Positions 5,075 to 16,301 of a stretch of 64,000 bases of DNA are shown piece by piece. This stretch comes from a virus. Made by a program: the position numbers and the translations under genes. Within the stretch, counting starts at the first letter, position 1, and every line of letters begins with the position of its first letter. Below the pieces are notes generated by a model, which was not told the origin of the DNA, searched no databases, and saw nothing but the letters and a program-made list of their open reading frames with translations. The DNA is taken from the IMG/VR virus record IMGVR_UViG_3300029258_001887; one strand, written 5' to 3'.

Positions 5075-6036
5075 TGTTCGTAACCGAGCACACATGCGAT
5101 GTTGTTGAAGTCAAGCTGATGCCACACCCCAACGCTGATGCGTTGAGTCTGGTGATGGTTGGAGATTTCCAATGCGCTGTCCGCACCGCAGACTGGAATG
5201 ACGGCGATCTGGCTGTCTACATTCCACCGGACAGTATCGTGCCCGAGACCAAGGAATTTGAGTTTCTGGGCAAGCATCGCAGGATCAAGGCTCGGAAGCT
5301 GAGGGGCGAATGGTCTGTCGGACTACTGGTTCCTGCACCAGAAGGCGCGAAGGTGGGCGACGACTGCATGGAGCAGTTGGGGGTCGTTCATTATGAACCG
5401 CAGGTGCATGGCAACTTCAAGACCGGTGGAGACAATGTGACGCCGCCGCCTGGATTCATGCCAACATACGATGTGCTGAATTTCCGCAAATATTCTCGGT
5501 TGTTCCAGGCTGGTGAAGAGGTGATTGTCACCGAGAAGATACACGGAGCCAACGCACGATTCGCTTGTGTCAACGATGTGATGTACTGCGGGTCGCGCAA
5601 GTTTTGGAAGCAGGAAGACCCCAACAACCTGTGGTGGAAAGTGCTCCAGCAAAACACAGCCCTTGAAGCATGGCTGAGACATCATCAGGATTACGTGGTC
5701 TACGGTGAAGTGTTTGGGCAGGTTCAGAACTTGAAGTATGGATCGACCAATGGTGCTCTCTTCTTTGCTGCGTTCGACATTCTCCACGGCAATCGGTGGC
5801 TGGACTTTGACGAGGCGCACGAGATCGGTGCTCCGTTGCCTTGGGTGCCTTTGGTGCATCGCGGCCCATTTGACAAGGATCAGATATTGGCATTCGCGGA
5901 AGAGGACAGTTTGTGGCCAGGTGCGAAACATCATGCTGAGGGGGTAGTGGTTAAGCCGGTTCATGAACGCACCGATCCGCGAATCGGTAGAGTCCAACTG
6001 AAAGTGGTAGGTAACCGGTATTTGAGCAAGAGCTAA
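5074..6036 (+). CDS. ATP-dependent RNA ligase (DRB0094-like, N-terminal OB-like domain)
   Basis: Motif I EKIHG, YGEVFG, FAAFDI, EGVVVK, LKVVG; N-terminal PHPNAD. Confidence 0.88.
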   Translation: MFVTEHTCDVVEVKLMPHPNADALSLVMVGDFQCAVRTADWNDGDLAVYIPPDSIVPETKEFEFLGKHRRIKARKLRGEWSVGLLVPAPEGAKVGDDCMEQLGVVHYEPQVHGNFKTGGDNVTPPPGFMPTYDVLNFRKYSRLFQAGEEVIVTEKIHGANARFACVNDVMYCGSRKFWKQEDPNNLWWKVLQQNTALEAWLRHHQDYVVYGEVFGQVQNLKYGSTNGALFFAAFDILHGNRWLDFDEAHEIGAPLPWVPLVHRGPFDKDQILAFAEEDSLWPGAKHHAEGVVVKPVHERTDPRIGRVQLKVVGNRYLSKS

Positions 6037-6796: not shown

Positions 6797-6872
6797 GGGT
6801 TGGTAGCTCAGCTATGGTAAGAGCGTCGGTCTGAAAAGCCGAGCGTCGGTGGTTCGACTCCACCCCGACCCA
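6797..6872 (+). tRNA. tRNA-Phe(GAA)
   Basis: Cloverleaf; anticodon arm TCGGT-CTGAAAA-GCCGA. Confidence 0.95.
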
Positions 6873-6875
6873 TGA

Positions 6876-6949
6876 GGCGGTATAGCTCAATTGGATAGAG
6901 CACCGGCCTGTCGAGCCGGGTGGTGCGAGTTCGAGTCTCGCTACCGTCG
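6876..6949 (+). tRNA. tRNA-Asp(GTC)
   Basis: Cloverleaf; CCGGC-CTGTCGA-GCCGG. Confidence 0.95.
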
Positions 6950-6960
6950 TTGAATTTTGA

Positions 6961-7032
6961 TGCGGGGTGGAGCAGTGGTAGCTTAGCGGTTTCATAAGCC
7001 GAAGGTCGCCGGTTCAAATCCGGCCCCCGCAA
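6961..7032 (+). tRNA. tRNA-Met(CAT), initiator-like
   Basis: (T)GCGGGGTGGAGCAG start typical of fMet; GCGGT-TTCATAA-GCCGA. Confidence 0.9.
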
Positions 7033-7043
7033 GTCTAACTCTT

Positions 7044-7341
7044 GGCGACACAAGAGAGAGCATGAGAGAATCGCTTGCGATTCTCAAGAAATTGTGCCGA
7101 AACCGATGTCGCGGTAGTTAGCGGTGAACGCCGGAATAGTGACCGCCGAACGGAGTGCGAGGCCCGTATTGGTGACGGTTGTGCCGAATTGTTGGGGCGG
7201 CACACGACAGGTAGTCGGCTGTACGGCGGGGTGTTCCCGTGAAACCGCCAGCCCCGAATGTTAGGACCAGGGGCCAAAGTCAGTGTCGGCAAGGTTGGAC
7301 AATGTGACAGGGGACTGCTGGTCGAATCCAGCCCGTCGCCA
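7044..7341 (+). ncRNA. Unknown ~300-nt structured RNA with tRNA-like acceptor stem and T-arm
   Basis: GGCGAC...GTCGCCA terminal pairing; GCTGG-TCGAAT-CCAGC arm; several internal hairpins; no plausible ORF. Confidence 0.65.
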
Positions 7342-7371
7342 TTAGTTCCGTAAGGTTAAGGGAGAAGAAAG

Positions 7372-7671
7372 ATGTTGCGAGTAAGACAAGGTTCTGATGA
7401 AGTTGAAATTCGGTTCGACCACAAGTTTTGTCGGCCAGACGAGATAGAGGGGCTGACCGGTATCTGTGTTGACGAAGACCGTAGATGTACGTTGGCTACG
7501 CTGCAACTGAACGGATCGGTCATTAGTCGTGGGATGGCTGTGTGTCATCCGGCTGACAACTTCTGTCGGGCTACTGGCAGGAAAAAGGCTTTGGTCTATG
7601 CAATCCACCCTCTTGATAAGCAATTCCGCGCCGCTATTTGGCGTGAATACGAAGCCCAGTGTGGTTTCTGA
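7372..7671 (+). CDS. Conserved phage hypothetical protein
   Basis: G.A.CHP.D.F.R.TGRK.AL motif; GGAG RBS. Confidence 0.7.
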   Translation: MLRVRQGSDEVEIRFDHKFCRPDEIEGLTGICVDEDRRCTLATLQLNGSVISRGMAVCHPADNFCRATGRKKALVYAIHPLDKQFRAAIWREYEAQCGF

Positions 7672-7680
7672 AAGTGGGCC

Positions 7681-7869
7681 ATGGATACTGAATATATCAT
7701 TGTATCGGACGATGACGGACACAACTATGTGATTCCTGCCGACAAGTCGAAAGAGTGGAATCGTTGGCTTGACTCCCAAGATTGCCAAGGTGGTATAGTC
7801 CCGACATGGTGTGAATCCATCGGTGGTTCGATCAGCTTGGTGAAATTCAAGAGCTACCGTATTGACTAG
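7681..7869 (+). CDS. Hypothetical protein
   Basis: ORF in operon context. Confidence 0.6.
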   Translation: MDTEYIIVSDDDGHNYVIPADKSKEWNRWLDSQDCQGGIVPTWCESIGGSISLVKFKSYRID

Positions 7870-7878
7870 GAGATTGCT

Positions 7879-8139
7879 TTGAATCCAGAAGAAGCAAAGA
7901 AAATCAAGTGTGACCGTTGTGGAGCAGTTATCGGTCTCCATCGTCACTCGGATGGCTGGCGATGTCCGCAATGCATCTGGAACGAGCGCGAGAACTTGAT
8001 TGAGTGGGCTAGGTGCTTGCTGAGTGCGACCGATTACACGACCGCAGCCAACACCGATAGGCAAGCCGTCGTGGTTTCTCGTCGAACGATGGACGCCCTG
8101 GCGGAAGTTGTCCGCGAGGTTACCGCCACAGGTGTATAA
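7879..8139 (+). CDS. Zn-ribbon hypothetical protein
   Basis: CxxC...CxxC; AGGAG RBS, TTG start. Confidence 0.6.
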   Translation: MNPEEAKKIKCDRCGAVIGLHRHSDGWRCPQCIWNERENLIEWARCLLSATDYTTAANTDRQAVVVSRRTMDALAEVVREVTATGV

Positions 8140-8152
8140 GCTATGGGGATGC

Positions 8153-8225
8153 GCCCCTGTAACTCAATAGGAAGAGTACCTGTTTTGTACACAGGATGTT
8201 GGCGGTTCGATTCCGTCCAGGGGCT
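8153..8225 (+). tRNA. tRNA-Thr(TGT)
   Basis: Cloverleaf; CCTGT-TTTGTAC-ACAGG. Confidence 0.95.
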
Positions 8226-8624: not shown

Positions 8625-8637
8625 GGGTGTATAATCT

Positions 8638-9705: not shown

Positions 9706-9768
9706 ATGATTGAAATTGATGCCATGACTGGCCCAGTAATTTTGAATTTATATGCCCAGCCCGTCTGA
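9706..9768 (+). CDS. Putative leader peptide D (MIEIDAMTGPVILNLYAQPV)
   Basis: 20-aa ORF followed by alternative hairpins and a terminator. Confidence 0.45.
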   Translation: MIEIDAMTGPVILNLYAQPV

Positions 9769-9814
9769 CGTATCAGCGGTACCCAGCTTGCCCACCATGT
9801 GTGGGTGGAGTAAC

Positions 9815-9848
9815 GGTGTCGTCTTCCGGGGGCGGCACCAGTTTTTTT
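9815..9848 (+). terminator. Intrinsic terminator / attenuator D
   Basis: GGTGTCGTC/GGCGGCACC stem + AGTTTTTTT. Confidence 0.8.
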
Positions 9849-9857
9849 CATTTTTTG

Positions 9858-9887
9858 TGAAACAAACACCGGAGTTTGGGGTATAAT
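9858..9887 (+). promoter_or_regulatory. Promoter, class TG(A/G)AAC-N18-TATAAT
   Basis: TGAAAC 9858-9863, TATAAT 9882-9887. Confidence 0.75.
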
Positions 9888-9909
9888 GATACTGTAGGAG
9901 GAACAACCA

Positions 9910-9993
9910 ATGAGATCGATACGCAGACATTATAAACCCGCCATTTTAGCCGCCGCGCTCAATCCACGCGCACGGGGTGGTGATGCGGGCTAA
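9910..9993 (+). CDS. Leader peptide B (MRSIRRHYKPAILAAALNPRARGGDAG)
   Basis: AGGAGG RBS 9896-9901; 27 aa; 3' end forms a 14-bp antiterminator with the terminator 5' arm. Confidence 0.8.
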   Translation: MRSIRRHYKPAILAAALNPRARGGDAG

Positions 9994-10026
9994 GGTCTGT
10001 CTGTTCCTTTTTGACTGGAGACTTTG

Positions 10027-10052
10027 GCCCGCGAGAAATCGCGGGCTTTTTT
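10027..10052 (+). terminator. Intrinsic terminator / attenuator B
   Basis: GCCCGCGA-GAAA-TCGCGGGC + TTTTTT. Confidence 0.9.
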
Positions 10053-10067
10053 ATTGGAATATCGGAC

Positions 10068-10667
10068 ATGAAGACCACAGTGGTAAATATTCGCCAAAAC
10101 GAATACGACGTGTATATCGGCAGGGAGGGACACGGCCATGATGGCTATTTTGGGAATCCCTTTTCCGCTATGCGAGATGGTGGCCGTGAGAGGGCAATCG
10201 CGCTGTACAGGGAGTATTTCTACCGGCGATTGCGGGTTGACTCAGAATTTGCTGAACGAGTACAGGAATTAAAGGGTAAACGATTAGGATGTTTTTGCGC
10301 ACCGAAACCATGCCATGGTGATATTATAGCCGATTATGTAAATATTGAACCCAATGTTAAACCATATGTTGATGAGTTAATGGCTGGAGGTTTCTACACT
10401 TTTTCGTCTTGCGACGGTGGTAATGGTCACTCATTCAAAAAAAGAACAATTAAAATCAACGTAGATCAGCCAACTGTCGATGATCCATGTGGATATGATA
10501 TTACTATCCGTGGAGAACGCAGATGTTACGAAAGATTCATCGATTTGTGCGATTTTATTGAAGGTAAGAAATGGACATATTGCAAAGTATTATTAGTAAG
10601 AGAATATATAATAAATGACCAGAATGTGCCCAAAGCAAATGTCCATTTTGAATTGGTGTGGAATTAA
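10068..10667 (+). CDS. DUF4326-like protein with C-terminal extension
   Basis: YDVYIGR..FGNPF..LKGKRLGCFCAPKPCHGDII. Confidence 0.8.
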   Translation: MKTTVVNIRQNEYDVYIGREGHGHDGYFGNPFSAMRDGGRERAIALYREYFYRRLRVDSEFAERVQELKGKRLGCFCAPKPCHGDIIADYVNIEPNVKPYVDELMAGGFYTFSSCDGGNGHSFKKRTIKINVDQPTVDDPCGYDITIRGERRCYERFIDLCDFIEGKKWTYCKVLLVREYIINDQNVPKANVHFELVWN

Positions 10668-10668
10668 A

Positions 10669-10773
10669 ATGAAGGTTATTGTTTGTGGTAGTCAAGATTG
10701 GAAGGGATACCAGACGATTAGAAAGCGGTTGGAATTGCTTCCGCCCAATGCCATAGCGATGAAAGTGGGTTGA
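10669..10773 (+). pseudogene. Truncated SLOG/YspA-like (DUF2493) gene remnant
   Basis: MKVIVCGSQDW..TIRKRL N-terminus then stop after 34 aa. Confidence 0.5.
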
Positions 10774-11040: not shown

Positions 11041-11113
11041 CGGAGTGTAGCTCAGTTGGTGGAGCGCGCGGTTTGGGACCGTGAGGTCGGTGGTTCGAGT
11101 CCACTCACTCCGA
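11041..11113 (+). tRNA. tRNA-Pro(TGG)
   Basis: Cloverleaf; CGCGG-TTTGGGA-CCGTG. Confidence 0.95.
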
Positions 11114-11116
11114 GTC

Positions 11117-11189
11117 TTGCGGGTAGCTCAATGGCTAGAGCGTTCGCCTGTTAAGCGAAAGTGTGCGGGTTCGAATCCCGTCCCGTAAG
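11117..11189 (+). tRNA. tRNA-Asn(GTT)
   Basis: Cloverleaf; TTCGC-CTGTTAA-GCGAA. Confidence 0.95.
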
Positions 11190-11202
11190 TTAGGAGATTG
11201 GT

Positions 11203-11379
11203 ATGAAGTGTGGCGAAAAAATATGGGTTATTTACGATACCAGGACTGGCAATATTGCTGAAAGTGGAGATAATTCTTTGCCTTTGATTTTCGAAGATGA
11301 AGACGCCGCAAGAGATTGTGCTGATTTGGTTCGTCACTGGGATGTATATCCAGCCTTTCTTACACGAGAGGAAAAATAA
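11203..11379 (+). CDS. Small hypothetical protein (58 aa)
   Basis: AGGAG RBS; TAATG coupling to next gene. Confidence 0.6.
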   Translation: MKCGEKIWVIYDTRTGNIAESGDNSLPLIFEDEDAARDCADLVRHWDVYPAFLTREEK

Positions 11380-11783
11380 TGCAGACATTTTTGCCCTATG
11401 CCGATTTCGACAAGAGTGTCCATTGTTTGGACAGGCAGCGGTTGGGGAAGCAGCGGGTGGAGGCGATGCAGATTCTCAATACCCTTGCCCGTGGTAGTCG
11501 ATGGGCAAATCACCCTGCTGTCCTGATGTGGCGGGGATACGAGAATGCATTGCGACTGTACATGAACAAGTGTATCCAGGAATGGATTCGACGTGGATAC
11601 AACAATACGATGCAGATTGCAGAAGTGACAGAACCAGTTGAGATGCCACCGTGGTTCGGGGATGAAGAATTCCATGCATCTCATAGATCGAATCTGCTTC
11701 GCAAGGATGCAGAGTGGTACGGACAATTTTGGTGGGGCGAGACAGACAAGTTGCCGTATGTTTGGCCCGTGAGGAAAAGCTGA
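11379..11783 (+). CDS. Pyrimidine-dimer DNA glycosylase family protein (MSMEG_6728-like)
   Basis: MQTFLPY..LDRQRLGKQRVEAMQIL..HPAVLMWRGY..SHRSNLLRKD. Confidence 0.85.
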   Translation: MQTFLPYADFDKSVHCLDRQRLGKQRVEAMQILNTLARGSRWANHPAVLMWRGYENALRLYMNKCIQEWIRRGYNNTMQIAEVTEPVEMPPWFGDEEFHASHRSNLLRKDAEWYGQFWWGETDKLPYVWPVRKS

Positions 11784-12064
11784 TGGATTTGAGTGGTATT
11801 GAGGAATTGTTGGAGTTTGCTAGGGTGGACAAAGAAACAGCGCAGCAAATTTGGAAAGACGTAAAGGCGAACCACAAGAGGTTGGACAATTGCAAGGGGC
11901 CACATGATTTTCGACCAGTTCCGGCTGAAGGGAAAAGTCTTGTCCGCGATTACGTGTGTTCCCGGTGCAATGGCAAGGTCGATGCCATCCACAAGTTGTG
12001 GTACGAGAGGGGGTTGGAGCATGGACGCAGCGAAGCTCAAGGCGATTCTGGAAAGACTACGTAA
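11783..12064 (+). CDS. Hypothetical protein with Cys/His cluster
   Basis: TGATG coupling; C..PHDF...CSRCNG. Confidence 0.65.
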   Translation: MDLSGIEELLEFARVDKETAQQIWKDVKANHKRLDNCKGPHDFRPVPAEGKSLVRDYVCSRCNGKVDAIHKLWYERGLEHGRSEAQGDSGKTT

Positions 12065-12100
12065 GGTCTATGGCGAGATGCTCAAGCGGCTGGCGAAGTA

Positions 12101-12224
12101 ACAACCTCCAGGGGTTGTATTTCGGGAAAACAACCTTTAAGGGTTGTCTTTGGGAAAACAACCAAAAAAGGTTGTCTGGCAGCCAAAAATGGTTGCCTCA
12201 GCGGAGGCAGCCGAAAATGGTTGC
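12101..12224. repeat. Array of five 18-bp palindromes RCARCC-N6-GGTTGY
   Basis: Copies start at 12101, 12130, 12158, 12179, 12207; invariant 6-nt spacer. Confidence 0.9.
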
Positions 12225-12235
12225 CTGGAGAAAAA

Positions 12236-12718
12236 ATGAGCATAACAGTACAAGATATCAGGAAGGCGATTACCGAGATCAAGCGGGTCCACAATTTACC
12301 TACTTCGCAAGTGGTAGAAGCATTTTTGATCAACCGCGACGATCTGGACGAGCTATGTAGCTGGGCTGTCGATCAAGGACAGCCGATACACGATCGAGAA
12401 ACTGGAACGGTTTTTGTCTATGGTGTCAAGATCATCGAAAGCCCTTATGTCCCGAAGGGAACCATCTACAAATTGCTCAAGGATAATTTACAGGAATATG
12501 CGATGGGTGGTTTTGGGGCTGGTGTTAGTGGAATGATACCAGCGTCATCCGATTTCGCTACCACGATACCAGCGAGTGGTTCGTTCAAGATGCCCGACTG
12601 CTTTCCTGTCGTGCCAGAGAGTGGGACGATCTACGTACCAAAGCCTACGCCGACACCGGCTGTACCAAAGAAGCCAGAGAAGAAACACAGTTCAAAGAGA
12701 CGGATCGAGTTGGACTGA
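12236..12718 (+). CDS. Hypothetical protein
   Basis: GGAG RBS; ends RRIELD like 3396..3674. Confidence 0.65.
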   Translation: MSITVQDIRKAITEIKRVHNLPTSQVVEAFLINRDDLDELCSWAVDQGQPIHDRETGTVFVYGVKIIESPYVPKGTIYKLLKDNLQEYAMGGFGAGVSGMIPASSDFATTIPASGSFKMPDCFPVVPESGTIYVPKPTPTPAVPKKPEKKHSSKRRIELD

Positions 12719-12724
12719 CAATAC

Positions 12725-12796
12725 GGGGGGATAGTGATAACGGGAGCACACCTGCCTTGCAAGCAGGAAGTCGGGGTTCGATTCCCCGTCCTTCCA
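12725..12796 (+). tRNA. tRNA-Ala(TGC)
   Basis: Cloverleaf, G3-U70; CCTGC-CTTGCAA-GCAGG. Confidence 0.93.
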
Positions 12797-12809
12797 TTGG
12801 AGAACAGAG

Positions 12810-13162
12810 ATGAAAGTGGATAAGCCTAAACTCAGAAGTGGGCCAACAGGACCACATTCACATGGATACAAAATGTGTATGGTTAGGTATTCGGACGGAA
12901 CCGACAAAGCTATTACATGGCACAAGTATATCTACGAATCTGAATAGAGAATCTGGAAGCTAAGGTAGTTTCTGATCATACCAGAGGACATCAGACACCG
13001 GCGTCGGCAAAGACCTATGTGTGCCCATGGTGTGGTATTAGTTTCGAACGCTCGGATCGTAGAGTACGACACAATCAAACGAGTCAGCGGAAGGCTGGCC
13101 CCTTTTGTAGTCGATCGTGTGGTGCAAGCTGGGGAAGAGAAAAACAGCTTGGAAGATTGTAG
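12810..13162 (+). pseudogene. Internally deleted HNH endonuclease gene
   Basis: N-part ...HKYIYESE* then, in another frame, IENLE..H..H + CPWCG...FCSRSC; HNH core missing. Confidence 0.6.
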
Positions 13163-13244
13163 CCCCTGTGATGGAATTGGCAGACATGACTGGTTTAAGC
13201 CCAGTTGCCTTCATGGCGTGTAGGTTCGAACCCTACCGGGGGTA
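13162..13244 (+). tRNA. tRNA-Leu(TAA)
   Basis: Long variable arm; ACTGG-TTTAAGC-CCAGT. Confidence 0.93.
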
Positions 13245-13250
13245 GTAGCA

Positions 13251-13323
13251 GCCCGAGTAGCCCAACGGCAGAGGCACACGGCCTAGAACCGTGTCAGTGG
13301 TGGTTCGAATCCACTCTCGGGTA
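13251..13323 (+). tRNA. tRNA-Leu(TAG), short variable loop, C33
   Basis: CACGG-CCTAGAA-CCGTG. Confidence 0.85.
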
Positions 13324-13329
13324 TTTGAT

Positions 13330-13402
13330 AGGTAGGTAGCTCAACTGGTAGAGCAGTGGTCTCCAAAACCAAAGGTTGAGGGTTCGAATCCCTCCCTGCC
13401 CA
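13330..13402 (+). tRNA. tRNA-Trp(CCA)
   Basis: Cloverleaf; loop CTCCAAA. Confidence 0.92.
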
Positions 13403-13404
13403 TA

Positions 13405-13477
13405 GGGCGGTTAGCTCAGTTGGGAGAGCACCTGCCTTACAAGCAGGGGGTCGCAGGTTCAAGCCCTGCACTGCCCA
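13405..13477 (+). tRNA. tRNA-Val(TAC)
   Basis: Cloverleaf; CCTGC-CTTACAA-GCAGG. Confidence 0.95.
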
Positions 13478-13482
13478 TTTGA

Positions 13483-13554
13483 GCCGGTGTAGTTCAACTG
13501 GTAGAACGCTCGGCTGTGGACCGGGAAATACAGGTTCGAGCCCTGTCGCTGGTG
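13483..13554 (+). tRNA. tRNA-His(GTG)
   Basis: CTCGG-CTGTGGA-CCGGG; lacks encoded G-1/C73. Confidence 0.85.
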
Positions 13555-13600
13555 TAACAGGTTTGGTATACAAAAACCGCCTCGCGGATATTGGCTCAAA

Positions 13601-13675
13601 GCGCCCGTAGTCTAATTGGATAAGGCCCTCGCCTTCTAAGCGAGTTTGTTGGGGGTTCGAGTCCCTCCGGGCGTG
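13601..13675 (+). tRNA. tRNA-Arg(TCT)
   Basis: CTCGC-CTTCTAA-GCGAG. Confidence 0.95.
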
Positions 13676-13677
13676 TA

Positions 13678-13750
13678 GGGGATGTAGCTTAATTGGCAGA
13701 GCACTGGTCTCTTAAACCAGAGGATGTGGGATCGTTGCCCACTGTCCCCA
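13678..13750 (+). tRNA. tRNA-Lys(CTT), atypical T-loop ATCGTTG
   Basis: CTGGT-CTCTTAA-ACCAG. Confidence 0.88.
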
Positions 13751-13762
13751 TTGGAGGCTAGA

Positions 13763-14140
13763 ATGGTAAAGCACGGATCACCGCCGTATCTGGAATGCAG
13801 CACACACGGAGACCGAAGGTTCTCTGCGTTCTGTGCTCGCCTGGAAGGCCGGGGTGGAAAGAGTATCGAAGAAATCTACCAAGCAGCCAAGGTGTTCGAA
13901 GGCGGGGTGACTGGCCTGACATGGCAAGATGCGAAGGGTCGGGTGCCTATCAATGGAGAAGAGGTAGCTCGATTGTACTCCCAGCTTTGGGATGAATACA
14001 TTGACGAGAATCCACACTTGTTGGATGTCTTGAAGATGGTGAGTGGCGTCAGCGACAAGTTCGGTCAACGGGGTCACATGTGCCAAGCGACAGAATTATG
14101 GAGGATTAGATGTGAGAGGGCTGGTAACTCAATGGATTAG
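13763..14140 (+). CDS. NADAR-like protein (resembles DarT1-associated antitoxin family)
   Basis: LECST.GD.RFSAF..RL...SIEEIYQAAKVFEGG...D.FG...CQA; GGAGG RBS; stop inside tRNA-Lys(TTT). Confidence 0.65.
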   Translation: MVKHGSPPYLECSTHGDRRFSAFCARLEGRGGKSIEEIYQAAKVFEGGVTGLTWQDAKGRVPINGEEVARLYSQLWDEYIDENPHLLDVLKMVSGVSDKFGQRGHMCQATELWRIRCERAGNSMD

Positions 14141-14191
14141 AGTAGCGGGCTTTTAACCCGCAGGCTGTGGGTTCGAGTCCCACCCAGCCCA
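14118..14191 (+). tRNA. tRNA-Lys(TTT)
   Basis: GCGGG-CTTTTAA-CCCGC. Confidence 0.95.
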
Positions 14192-14209
14192 GTAGTGAAG
14201 GGGGTTGTC

Positions 14210-15217
14210 ATGAAGCTTGAAGACATTGGATTCTACACGCTATCTGACAAGCGTGCGTTGAACGCTAGCGACACCTCTCCGTTGCAGCGGTGTGAGTTGA
14301 TTCTTACGGATCGCTGTAACCTACGGTGTCCGTATTGCCGTGGTGTAAGACCGGAGATTCGTGGAGATATGCCGTTCAAACAGGCGATTAAAACTGTCAA
14401 TCTCTGGATCGCTCAAGGGCTGAAGAACGTCAGGTTCTCTGGTGGGGAGCCTACTCTATACAAGTGTCTGGGTAAGTTGGTTGATCGTTGTCGTGAAGGT
14501 GGGGTCGAGCGTATCGCAATCTCCACAAATGGTACGGCAAAGCTTGAGACCTATCTGGCTTTGGTCGGAGCGGGTGTCAACGATTTCTCCATCAGTCTTG
14601 ATGGTGGTTGCTGCGCTGTTGGTACGGACATGGCCGGTGGAGTGAAGGGTGCATGGGCGAAGGCTGTAGAGTCTATCCGCACTCTGAGCAAGATCACCTA
14701 CGTAACCGTTGGCATGGTCTTCACCGAGGCTAATGTTGACCAGTGTGTTGAGGCTGTGCTGTTCGTGGACAGCCTGGGGGTTTCTGACATCCGAGTTATC
14801 CCAGCGGCACAGTACAACCAAGCTTTGACAAAGCTGGCCGATTTGCCAGACGAGGTATTGGACAAGTACCCGATCCTGAAGTACCGGATTGGGAACCTGA
14901 AAGCTGATAGAAGTGTACGCGGAATCTGTGAGGGCAATTGTCGCAAGTGCTGGTTGGCACTGGACGACATGGCTGTAGCCGGTAAATGGCACTTCCCATG
15001 CATCATCCACTTACGGGAAGGTGGCGATCCTATCGGTGAAGTAGGTCCGAACATGAGGGCCGAGCGACTACAATGGATTCTTGAACACGATAGCATGGCC
15101 GACCCAATCTGTGCTGCGAACTGCCTGGACGTGTGCGTTGACTACAACGACACGGCAGCTATATCGCACCCAGAAAAGAGGGCCGGTAGCTCAGTGGTAC
15201 GAGCGGGATGCTTATAA
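14210..15217 (+). CDS. Radical SAM enzyme
   Basis: CNLRCPYC, SGGEPT, STNG, ISLDG; extra C-terminal Cys; stop inside tRNA-Ile(TAT). Confidence 0.9.
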   Translation: MKLEDIGFYTLSDKRALNASDTSPLQRCELILTDRCNLRCPYCRGVRPEIRGDMPFKQAIKTVNLWIAQGLKNVRFSGGEPTLYKCLGKLVDRCREGGVERIAISTNGTAKLETYLALVGAGVNDFSISLDGGCCAVGTDMAGGVKGAWAKAVESIRTLSKITYVTVGMVFTEANVDQCVEAVLFVDSLGVSDIRVIPAAQYNQALTKLADLPDEVLDKYPILKYRIGNLKADRSVRGICEGNCRKCWLALDDMAVAGKWHFPCIIHLREGGDPIGEVGPNMRAERLQWILEHDSMADPICAANCLDVCVDYNDTAAISHPEKRAGSSVVRAGCL

Positions 15218-15252
15218 CATCCAAGTCGCTGGTTCGATTCCAGCCCGGCCTA
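15180..15252 (+). tRNA. tRNA-Ile(TAT)
   Basis: GGATG-CTTATAA-CATCC. Confidence 0.92.
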
Positions 15253-15255
15253 TGT

Positions 15256-15334
15256 TGGCTGATAGCTCAGTTGGTAGAGCAGTGGTAGGGTCGCTCCCTG
15301 CTACGGCGCGCAGGTTCGAGTCCTGCTCAGCCAG
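15256..15334 (+). ncRNA. tRNA-like RNA with non-canonical 9-bp anticodon arm
   Basis: Canonical acceptor, D and T arms; anticodon arm GTGGTAGGG-TCGCT-CCCTGCTAC. Confidence 0.8.
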
Positions 15335-15339
15335 TAGAT

Positions 15340-15412
15340 GTCTCCGTAGTGTTCAACAGTAGCACGCCAGTCTTCCAAACTGGAGGTCTCGGTGCAAATC
15401 CGAGTGGGGACT
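15340..15412 (+). tRNA. tRNA-Gly(TCC), atypical D and T loops
   Basis: CCAGT-CTTCCAA-ACTGG; no GG in D-loop; T-loop TGCAAAT. Confidence 0.85.
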
Positions 15413-15416
15413 TTGG

Positions 15417-15490
15417 GGGCTTGTAGCTCAGTGGAATTAGAGCACCGTCTACGGAACCGGGTGTCGGGAGTTCGAATCTCTCCAGGCCCA
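15417..15490 (+). tRNA. tRNA-Arg(ACG) with 1-nt-short anticodon stem
   Basis: CCGT-CTACGGA-ACCGG. Confidence 0.8.
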
Positions 15491-15498
15491 TTGAAGCA

Positions 15499-15571
15499 GG
15501 GCTTGTAGTTTAGTGGTTAAAACACACGCCTGATAAGCGTGAGATCGCTGGTTCGATTCCAGCCAAGCCCA
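15499..15571 (+). tRNA. tRNA-Ile(GAT)
   Basis: CACGC-CTGATAA-GCGTG. Confidence 0.95.
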
Positions 15572-15671: not shown

Positions 15672-15866
15672 ATGATGGAAGAAAGAGAAACAGGCATCCC
15701 ATGCTTTGGGTGCGGTCAACGATCGGGTATCGATTGCCCAGGCCGCAGGCCGGATGAGGCCACCCGTTGTAAGGTGTGCTTGGAAGAATTCATGCGGCAG
15801 ATGGACACAGCAGAGCGGGTCATGGAGGAACACAAGGACATGTTGAGAAGGTTGGCAGATTCGTAG
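15672..15866 (+). CDS. Small Zn-finger hypothetical protein
   Basis: CFGC...CKVC. Confidence 0.6.
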   Translation: MMEERETGIPCFGCGQRSGIDCPGRRPDEATRCKVCLEEFMRQMDTAERVMEEHKDMLRRLADS

Positions 15867-15875
15867 GAGCGAGAA

Positions 15876-15947
15876 ATGAAGCTACAACAGCAATCATCCC
15901 AGTCGAGTAGTCAACGGCCTCGTGGCCGTCTGGGGTGGACTGTGTAG
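15876..15947 (+). CDS. Leader peptide C (MKLQQQSSQSSSQRPRGRLGWTV)
   Basis: AGGAG RBS; 10 consecutive Gln/Ser codons; alternative hairpins with downstream terminator. Confidence 0.85.
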   Translation: MKLQQQSSQSSSQRPRGRLGWTV

Positions 15948-15969
15948 ATTCAGGTACACGGAAACACAG

Positions 15970-16005
15970 AACCGGGCGGTCCATGAGGGCTGTCCGGTTT
16001 TTTTT
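15970..16005 (+). terminator. Intrinsic terminator / attenuator C
   Basis: AACCGGGCGGTCC-ATGA-GGGCTGTCCGGTT + T-run, 10 nt before tRNA-Ser. Confidence 0.9.
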
Positions 16006-16014
16006 GTGCGCAGA

Positions 16015-16097
16015 GGAAAGCGCCGCGGAATGGTCTGCAACTCGGTTTGAACCCGAGGGGGGCTGAAAGGCTCGGGGTTCGATTCCTCCGCTTTCCG
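16015..16097 (+). tRNA. tRNA-Ser(TGA), 8/4 cloverleaf
   Basis: 8-bp acceptor GGAAAGCG/CGCTTTCC, 4-bp T-stem, long V arm, G73. Confidence 0.85.
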
Positions 16098-16138
16098 TTA
16101 TCTTGTGGTTCTATGGGGTATATATACACCATAGAATG

Positions 16139-16223
16139 GGGTGGTGAAGTCGCAAGGCGCGGCCACCGGCTGCTAACCGGTTGGGGCTCGCACGAGTCTG
16201 TGGGTCGGGACCACCGCCATCCG
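16139..16223 (+). tRNA. tRNA-Ser(GCT), 8/4 cloverleaf
   Basis: 8-bp acceptor GGGTGGTG/CGCCATCC, T-stem GTGG/CCAC, ACCGG-CTGCTAA-CCGGT, long V arm. Confidence 0.82.
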
Positions 16224-16227
16224 TTGA

Positions 16228-16301
16228 GGGCCGATAGCTCAAGCTGGCAGAGCGTCTGGCTTTGAACCAGGAGGTTGCAAGTTCGAACCTTGCTCGGCCT
16301 G
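16228..16301 (+). tRNA. tRNA-Gln(TTG)
   Basis: TCTGG-CTTTGAA-CCAGG. Confidence 0.93.

Follow-up and report, generated by a model that had tools for sequence, protein, structure and literature searches.

Transcription attenuation by a leader peptide is textbook knowledge from enterobacteria, where the leaders trpL, hisL, leuL, thrL and pheL, as well as the multivalent leaders of ilvGMEDA and thr, place a promoter, a Shine-Dalgarno (SD) sequence, a short open reading frame (ORF) and a terminator before the genes that they control. In these leaders, four RNA regions form either helices 1:2 and 3:4 or the exclusive helix 2:3, region 1 lying in the ORF and the stop codon at or in region 2. Here, we describe a cassette with the same layout, with regions 2-4 and with candidates for region 1, in a stretch of 64,000 nucleotides (nt) from an uncultured phage (the window, that is, the whole stretch analyzed: bases 41883-105882 of the 160,681-bp IMG/VR record IMGVR_UViG_3300029258_001887, estimated to be 97% complete). 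On the strength of sequence comparison and RNA folding we consider, with moderate confidence, that this cassette is a trp-type ribosome-mediated (leader-peptide) transcription attenuator gating a DUF4326 gene and 16 tRNA genes.

The enterobacterial leaders differ from the phage cassette in their cargo, which encodes biosynthetic enzymes, and in their runs of regulatory codons, whereas the cassette precedes tRNAs and DUF4326 and has no such run. Moreover, they sense an amino acid, while the phage cassette would sense decoding capacity itself. In textbook systems such as pheST, translation machinery is likewise controlled by the speed at which a leader is decoded, but pheST encodes a synthetase and monitors Phe-tRNA by means of five Phe codons, whereas the phage products are tRNAs and the leader has no repeated codon of that kind. 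T-box riboswitches also report tRNA status through terminator/antiterminator control; they bind uncharged tRNA directly and need no translation, unlike the short and apparently translated phage leader. Finally, lambda pR'-6S RNA-tR', acting with Q, is likewise a phage promoter and short terminated transcript before a long operon, but it has neither a conserved translated frame nor an alternative helix overlapping a stop codon, as the phage cassette does.

No Rfam family matched the cassette above its gathering score: Trp_leader reached 18 bits (gathering 41) and Leu_leader 13 (50), the other best matches were terminator-like small-RNA tails, and no T-box match appeared even at E values up to 10. 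To our knowledge, essentially nothing is established about the timing and dosing of phage tRNA gene expression. The literature that we searched, the coverage of which was incomplete, yielded no account of tRNA genes or phage tRNA arrays controlled by a leader peptide. Phage tRNAs are now connected with codon supply as well as with evasion of tRNA-cleaving defences; two papers, PMC10264068 and PMC11555353, came up in this search.

The cassette and its competing helices

The promoter, the AGGAGG, the 27-codon ORF, the terminator, the CCCGC and the codon list that an earlier note on this DNA had reported were all read directly at their positions (Table 1; coordinates are those of the window unless another contig is named). 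Relatives were reached via homologues of the DUF4326 protein, which gave contigs with and without the cassette, and a DNA pattern made from three leaders retrieved further copies from IMG/VR and from JGI/ENA metagenomes. Other routes gave less. The GenBank phages of INPHARED held no relative of the region beyond tRNA-Pro; searches with the DUF4326 and DnaE-like proteins found distant phages only and no close cultured relative of the window phage; IMG/VR gave no match by DUF4326 protein, exact terminator or junction with the ribosome-binding site (RBS). A promoter-plus-SD pattern matched only GIY-YIG-type coding sequences, and the pattern matches L016, L019 and L034-L038 were false, lying inside bacterial genes.

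Besides the window, nine loci carry the cassette, two other near-complete phages among them. Nine distinct sequences, corresponding to about six independent lineages, were aligned (alignment A1: the window, L011, L009, which is the locus of phage G001, L020, L015, L010, L018, L007 and L006). The tenth homologue, L033, came from a looser pattern, is rearranged and sits in the 179.6-kb phage G002. Where the cassette is present, the parts come in the order upstream terminator, phage-type promoter, AGGAGG, short ORF, antiterminator with the ORF stop, intrinsic terminator and RBS of the next gene, and the DUF4326 proteins of these loci are 59-90% identical to that of the window (L007 59%, L006 90%). 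In L002-L005, the DUF4326 proteins of which are 82% identical, the upstream terminator and promoter are kept and lead directly to DUF4326 with no cassette; a single tRNA-Pro lies within 6 kb downstream. Three other contigs have no gap before DUF4326, which the upstream gene touches or overlaps.

Comparison among relatives supports this architecture well, and our reading rests in part on a pair of mutually exclusive helices. The earlier note had proposed that the end of the ORF sequesters the 5' arm of the terminator, and indeed 9985-9998 pairs with 10019-10032 over 14 contiguous base pairs, two of them G-U, in a helix (2:3) that shares 10026-10032 with the terminator and therefore excludes it. 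This pairing is beyond chance, as none of 5000 shuffles of the upstream leader paired as well with 10019-10032. As a hairpin, the 14-bp helix reaches -25.6 kcal/mol, compared to -17.8 for the terminator. It is kept in all ten homologues, with 94.3% of alignment cells paired over the nine sequences and at most 51% in slid registers, and in all ten the stop codon lies inside region 2. The terminator itself has five stem pairs with compensatory double changes among relatives in RNAalifold, the consensus of which contains hairpin H1, the lower half of the 2:3 helix and the terminator.

Region 2 might also be held from upstream. H1 has 93% of its cells paired, compared to at most 64% when slid, and the combined GCAGAC and CCCGC partner of region 2 has 81% in the long-range fold, compared to 42-58%; TTAGCCGC is complementary to GCG(G)GCTAA of region 2. 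In each of the seven main-group sequences, codons 5-16 provide the best match for region 2 upstream, and in all nine sequences no 1:2 duplex is as strong as the 2:3 duplex. Two further pairings were set aside. That of GCAGAC with the loop GUCUGU (9999-10004) of the 2:3 hairpin looked compensatory in L006 and is broken, by eye, in L015, L010, L018 and L007. Sequestration of the SD by the U-rich stretch after the stop codon is seen in closer relatives, with 81% of cells paired overall, mostly as G-U, and was not relied on.

The reading frame is kept as well. It is open from the same ATG column to the same stop column in all nine aligned sequences, while the other two frames carry stops, and it has 27 codons in eight of them, the ninth (L006) having 21 after an 18-nt in-frame deletion. 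The SD and its spacing are kept among aligned relatives (AGGAG in 8/9). The rearranged ORF of L033 has 47 codons, ends in ...PFGGDAG* and keeps only the last five usual leader codons, together with the same regions 2-4 and RBS as the other cassettes. Codon differences among the aligned loci amount to 306 nonsynonymous and 65 synonymous changes. Codons 2-17 vary freely (column entropy of 0.72, 1.00 and 0.95 at codon positions 1, 2 and 3, with no third-position excess), and the N-terminal two thirds of the peptide are unconstrained. Selection thus appears to act on translation itself and not on the leader peptide.

The cassette is also linked to the tRNAs by position. Results of ARAGORN and Rfam showed 21 tRNAs in the window: four at 6797-8225, 16 in the array behind the cassette and a tRNA-Gln at 16228. 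The earlier note had placed the cassette in front of the tRNA array, which is right for the 16 downstream tRNAs and not for the four upstream of it. About 1 kb of protein-coding sequence (the DUF4326 gene and small ORFs) separates the cassette from the first downstream tRNA at 11041. Between 9881 and 15662 we found no further GTATAA-type promoter on the plus strand nor, between the cassette and 15662, any terminator as strong; the unit of DUF4326 and 16 tRNAs thus has no recognizable entry other than the cassette.

The promoter belongs to a phage-specific class made of GGAACAAAC, a spacer of about 15 nt and GTATAAT, searched as GAACAA(A/C)-spacer-GTATAAT. Across the 160-kb genome seven copies match, the majority of them on the minus strand (52913 and 54781 among them, with some outside the window); that of the cassette is the only plus-strand copy, apart from a near-variant at 2276. 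The motif is kept in the nine aligned loci and in the leaderless L002, and has a weaker form in L033/G002.

The first gene behind the cassette is DUF4326 in the window, L011, L006, L007, L015 and G002, a 65-aa ORF in L009 and L020, another gene in L010, and in L018 a 45-codon remnant ending at the first tRNA. The RBS stretch, within 5 nt of the T-run and leading in the window to the DUF4326 start 15 bases past the terminator, travels with the cassette even where the next gene differs (L009, L010). tRNAs follow wherever the contig extends far enough: 16 in the window and 12 in L011; Leu(UAA), Leu(UAG), Trp, Leu(CAA) and Tyr in G001 by ARAGORN, plus a weak Pro-like sixth, making 6 of its 7 tRNA matches; Leu(UAA) 150 nt past the terminator, then Leu(CAA), Ile(UAU) and Arg(UCU) in L018 (4 + 2 in the count); Pro and Ala in G002 (2 + 1); and at least two, Pro and Asn, in L015. 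Judged by gene order, the tRNAs and not DUF4326 are the constant cargo, in a small number of independent cases.

A proposed switch and what weighs against it

We infer that translation sets the choice between the two structures, and likewise the direction of the response and the signal sensed, in the following way. RNA polymerase would start near 9894 at the phage-type promoter, and a ribosome would load at AGGAGG and translate the 27 codons. If it moved unhindered to the last five codons or the stop, it would cover region 2 and leave region 3 free for region 4, so that the terminator would form and a leader RNA of about 160 nt would be released. A ribosome lagging in codons 2-21 would instead mask region 1 and free region 2, the 2:3 helix would form first and hold the 5' arm of the terminator, and polymerase would continue into DUF4326 and the tRNAs. 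Without a ribosome, region 1 or H1 would hold region 2 and transcription would terminate. The output would be a negative feedback from translation-elongation capacity to tRNA gene transcription, slow decoding raising the latter. The likeliest slow codons would be AGA, AUA and UUA in region 1, and a general slowdown of elongation would act alike.

We also folded the transcript ending at region 3 with a ribosome footprint of 29 nt masked, a thermodynamic and not a kinetic calculation. Results showed that the 2:3 helix is high at most A-site positions from 2 to 21 in most homologues, being low throughout in L006 and dipping at late positions in L009 and L020. With the A site anywhere between codon 24 and the stop, it is close to zero in all nine sequences, and without a ribosome it is close to zero in six of nine.

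Several observations weigh against this proposal. The window sequence and L018 form the 2:3 helix on the truncated transcript even when no ribosome is present. Full-length equilibrium folds favor the terminator at almost every ribosome position, with windows that are inconsistent between homologues, and the switch must consequently be kinetic, as in trp; a consistent antitermination window came from the truncated transcript alone. Covariation in the 2:3 helix, which the earlier note had named as a check, is thin: pairing is well kept, as described above, but a single pair covaries (AU/GC/GU), with a score that 43 of 500 shuffles reach. The same note had suggested that CCCGC (9937-9941) pre-empts the 14-bp pairing; the motif does pair with GCGGG in the minimum-energy fold, but no compensatory change among relatives accompanies it. 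More generally, there are three region-1 candidates, none of them present in all nine sequences, and neither region 1 nor H1 has a compensatory change. Finally, the leader lacks a run of any one codon, the usual mark of classical attenuators, and has no tandem run of a rare one; the codon used most often, GCC, occurs three times in all.

Leader codons and other explanations

The earlier note had gone further and read the leader as a broad-spectrum sensor mirroring the tRNA roster. In this explanation, the leader samples the codons read by the downstream tRNAs, a shortage, for example through a host anticodon nuclease, turns the array on, and AGA, AUA and UUA are the key reporters. The count on which it was based, 16 of 18 codons specifying amino acids of downstream tRNAs, is correct (nominal P = 0.008; all codon statistics given here were chosen after seeing the data). 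Over the whole leader of the window, 23 of 26 residues have a tRNA for the same amino acid in the unit, with 15.5 expected (background 0.596, nominal P = 0.0014), and in L011 the match is 18 of 26 (P = 0.03), both above expectation. Elsewhere the match is at chance, with 5 of 26 in G001 compared to 4.6 expected, 6 of 26 in L018 compared to 5.2 and 8 of 45 in G002 compared to 5.5. Phages with as few as three or four amino-acid specificities in their arrays have almost this leader too, which is therefore inherited, changing little as arrays shrink or grow, and not tuned to each array. A sensor mirroring the roster is therefore not supported as formulated; the note itself had cautioned that part of the match is expected by chance. 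We consider this explanation unlikely.

The individual codons bear on it in both directions. AGA, ATA and TTA together make up 4 of 26 codons in the window and in L018, while their share in phage ORFs is 3% (P = 0.007 for each of the two leaders, a post hoc choice of codons). They lie in region 1, where a stall would act, and the matching genes are present in the window (tRNA-Arg(UCU) 13601-13675, Ile(UAU) 15180-15252 and Leu(UAA) 13162-13244), as they are in the small array of L018. Every leader has at least one TTA, at a different position in L006, L007 and L010, and tRNA-Leu(UAA) occurs in four of the five readable arrays, being absent from G002. ATA is found in the three leaders whose arrays carry Ile(UAU) and is absent from G001, which lacks that tRNA. 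The enrichment, which the earlier note had proposed to check against genome codon usage, is modest and post hoc, and AGA and ATA are not rare in phage genes: in the phage's own genes AGA makes up 20% of Arg, ATA 19% of Ile and TTA 8.6% of Leu codons, so that only TTA is rare.

Other observations speak more directly against codon sampling. G001 keeps the AGA codon with no tRNA-Arg(UCU) among its seven tRNAs. Region 2 contains complements of the conserved AGA and TTA codons (AGAC:GUCU and UUAGCC:GGCUAA), and RNA structure alone can therefore explain their invariance. Similarly, 14 of the 26 residues are Ala, Arg or Gly, a richness due to the GC-rich helices. A single hungry codon would also be a weak signal compared to the runs of known attenuators.

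An example of codon matching in this phage comes from a second cassette at 15862-16301, which has an SD, a 23-codon ORF at 15876-15947 (MKLQQQSSQSSSQRPRGRLGWTV) and a 15-bp terminator at 15968-16010. Its leader reads MKLQQQSSQSSSQ..., the peptide including QQQSSQSSSQ, and it is followed by two tRNA-Ser-like genes and a tRNA-Gln (16228-16301). The two long-arm tRNA-Ser-like genes (16014-16097 and about 16130-16222) were missed by ARAGORN and by Rfam at the gathering score; by eye, their anticodon loops are UGA and GCU, and the first scores 32 bits against tRNA-Sec (gathering 47). The end of the ORF (15923-15952) can pair with the 5' flank of the terminator at -25 kcal/mol, matched by 17 of 3000 shuffles. 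L011, L018 and G002 share this cassette, and of the Ser tRNAs only a remnant is left in G002, where the leader nevertheless retains its Ser codons. Unlike the first cassette of the window, the second is plainly codon-matched. It is of the same build and makes the general attenuator idea more credible for this phage, and it also counts in favor of codon sampling, as codon matching does occur here.

A stand-alone small gene, encoding a micropeptide or a small RNA of about 160 nt, with a leaky terminator and with the 2:3 complementarity as a by-product, is clearly improbable in our view. Promoter, short ORF and strong terminator would be the layout of an independent small gene too, the full-length fold is a long hairpin in which the SD is sequestered, a feature also of some small RNAs and type I toxin mRNAs, and the C-terminal NP.A.GGDAG of the peptide is nearly invariant. 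However, the invariant codons (AAT CCA.GC GC. ... GGT GAT GCG GGC) coincide with H1 and the 2:3 helix, and the remaining two thirds of the peptide vary. A frame kept open in this way, with no selection on amino acids, is consistent with a leader peptide and speaks against a micropeptide with a function of its own. The peptide is basic, rich in Ala and Gly and has no transmembrane stretch, unlike the hydrophobic type I toxins of the hok kind. The conservation of the 2:3 helix in all ten homologues, the RBS that travels with the cassette and the lack of another recognizable promoter for DUF4326 and the 16 tRNAs also speak against a separate gene. We also considered a nascent-peptide arrest motif in NP.A.GGDAG, and rejected it: no matching motif is known to us, and the nucleotides are constrained by the helices anyway.

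Finally, we regard it as very unlikely that the ORF is incidental and that a phage antitermination factor or RNA (lambda Q/tR'-, N- or put-like) overcomes a terminator close to the promoter. The lambda-like terminated transcript and the single regex-matched plus-strand promoter would suit this view, but the conserved SD, start, frame and stop are unexpected at a Q- or N-type site, the conserved alternative helix puts the stop codon inside region 2, and no Q-like gene or site turned up, no systematic search for one having been made.

Features, neighboring observations and meaning

Table 1. Parts of the putative attenuator cassette and of the unit behind it, in window coordinates
Feature	Position	Strand	Remarks
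Intrinsic terminator closing the upstream transcription unit	9815-9849	+	kept, with compensating changes, in L009, L020, L018, L015, L002
Phage-type promoter GTGAAACAAAC ... GGGGTATAAT	9857-9887	+	-10 hexamer TATAAT 9882-9887
Shine-Dalgarno AGGAGG	9897-9902	+	7 nt before ATG
Leader ORF, 27 codons + TAA	9910-9993	+	ATG 9910, TAA 9991-9993; peptide MRSIRRHYKPAILAAALNPRARGGDAG
Region 1 (anti-antiterminator candidates)	9923-9953	+	GCAGAC 9923-9928, CCCGC 9937-9941, TTAGCCGC 9946-9953; all complementary to region 2
Hairpin H1 (CCACGCGCA / GGTGATGCGGG)	9964-9989	+	alternative sequestration of the 5' half of region 2; RNAalifold consensus
Region 2 GCGGGCTAAGGTCT	9985-9998	+	holds last two codons and stop codon
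Region 3 AGACTTTGGCCCGC	10019-10032	+	pairs with region 2; 3' half is the 5' arm of the terminator
Intrinsic terminator GGCCCGCGA-GAAA-TCGCGGGCT + T6	10026-10052	+	9-bp stem, GAAA loop
Conserved RBS stretch TTGGAATATCGGAC, then DUF4326 gene 10068-10667	10055-10667	+	Pfam DUF4326 E = 1.4e-22
16 tRNA genes interspersed with protein genes (putative gated cargo)	11041-15571	+	ARAGORN and Rfam
Next strong terminator, likely unit end; part of second leader-peptide cassette	15968-16010	+	

Some further observations concern the surroundings of the cassette. Between the upstream gene and the upstream terminator, 9768-9812 (GCTTGCCCACCATGTGTGGGTGGAGTAAC) contains a hairpin CCCACC/GGTGGG and is nearly unchanged in L009, L020, L015, L018, G002 and the leaderless L002. 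Between promoter and SD, L007 has an extra hairpin with a T-run (5778-5823 of its contig), and in G002 the promoter and the 47-codon ORF are separated by a tRNA-Ala(CGC)-like gene (L041 208-278). Behind DUF4326, the 34-codon ORF at 10669-10773 (MKVIVCGSQDWKGYQTIRKRLELLPPNAIAMKVG) resembles the N-terminal stump of a YspA/YAcAr (PF10686) SLOG-domain gene and is probably a truncated remnant of it; in relatives, a full-length YspA/YAcAr gene (116-123 aa) follows DUF4326 or is fused to it. Another motif, GGTGTATAA(T/A/G), recurs at 8134, immediately upstream of tRNA-Thr, and at 8629, 15662, 16319, 17046 and 17647. Precomputed Pfam matches place an RNA ligase gene with an intein containing a LAGLIDADG endonuclease at 239-2302 of L002.

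As a tentative extension of the attenuator reading, the cassette might serve as a tRNA homeostat or alarm. Decoding of AGA, AUA and UUA would depend mainly on the phage-encoded tRNA-Arg(UCU), Ile(UAU) and Leu(UAA), and the array would be transcribed only while these are scarce or under a host tRNA-cleaving defence. Combined with the Gln/Ser cassette, which lies 6 kb downstream, it would make up a tiered set of self-sensing tRNA operons.

The cassette is short (about 200 bp) and self-contained, and its relatives form a useful test family, with large arrays, small arrays or no cassette at all, and with a second, codon-matched cassette in the same operon region. If the attenuator reading is true, trp-type attenuation would extend from amino-acid supply to decoding capacity, giving the phage a direct feedback on its own translation machinery.

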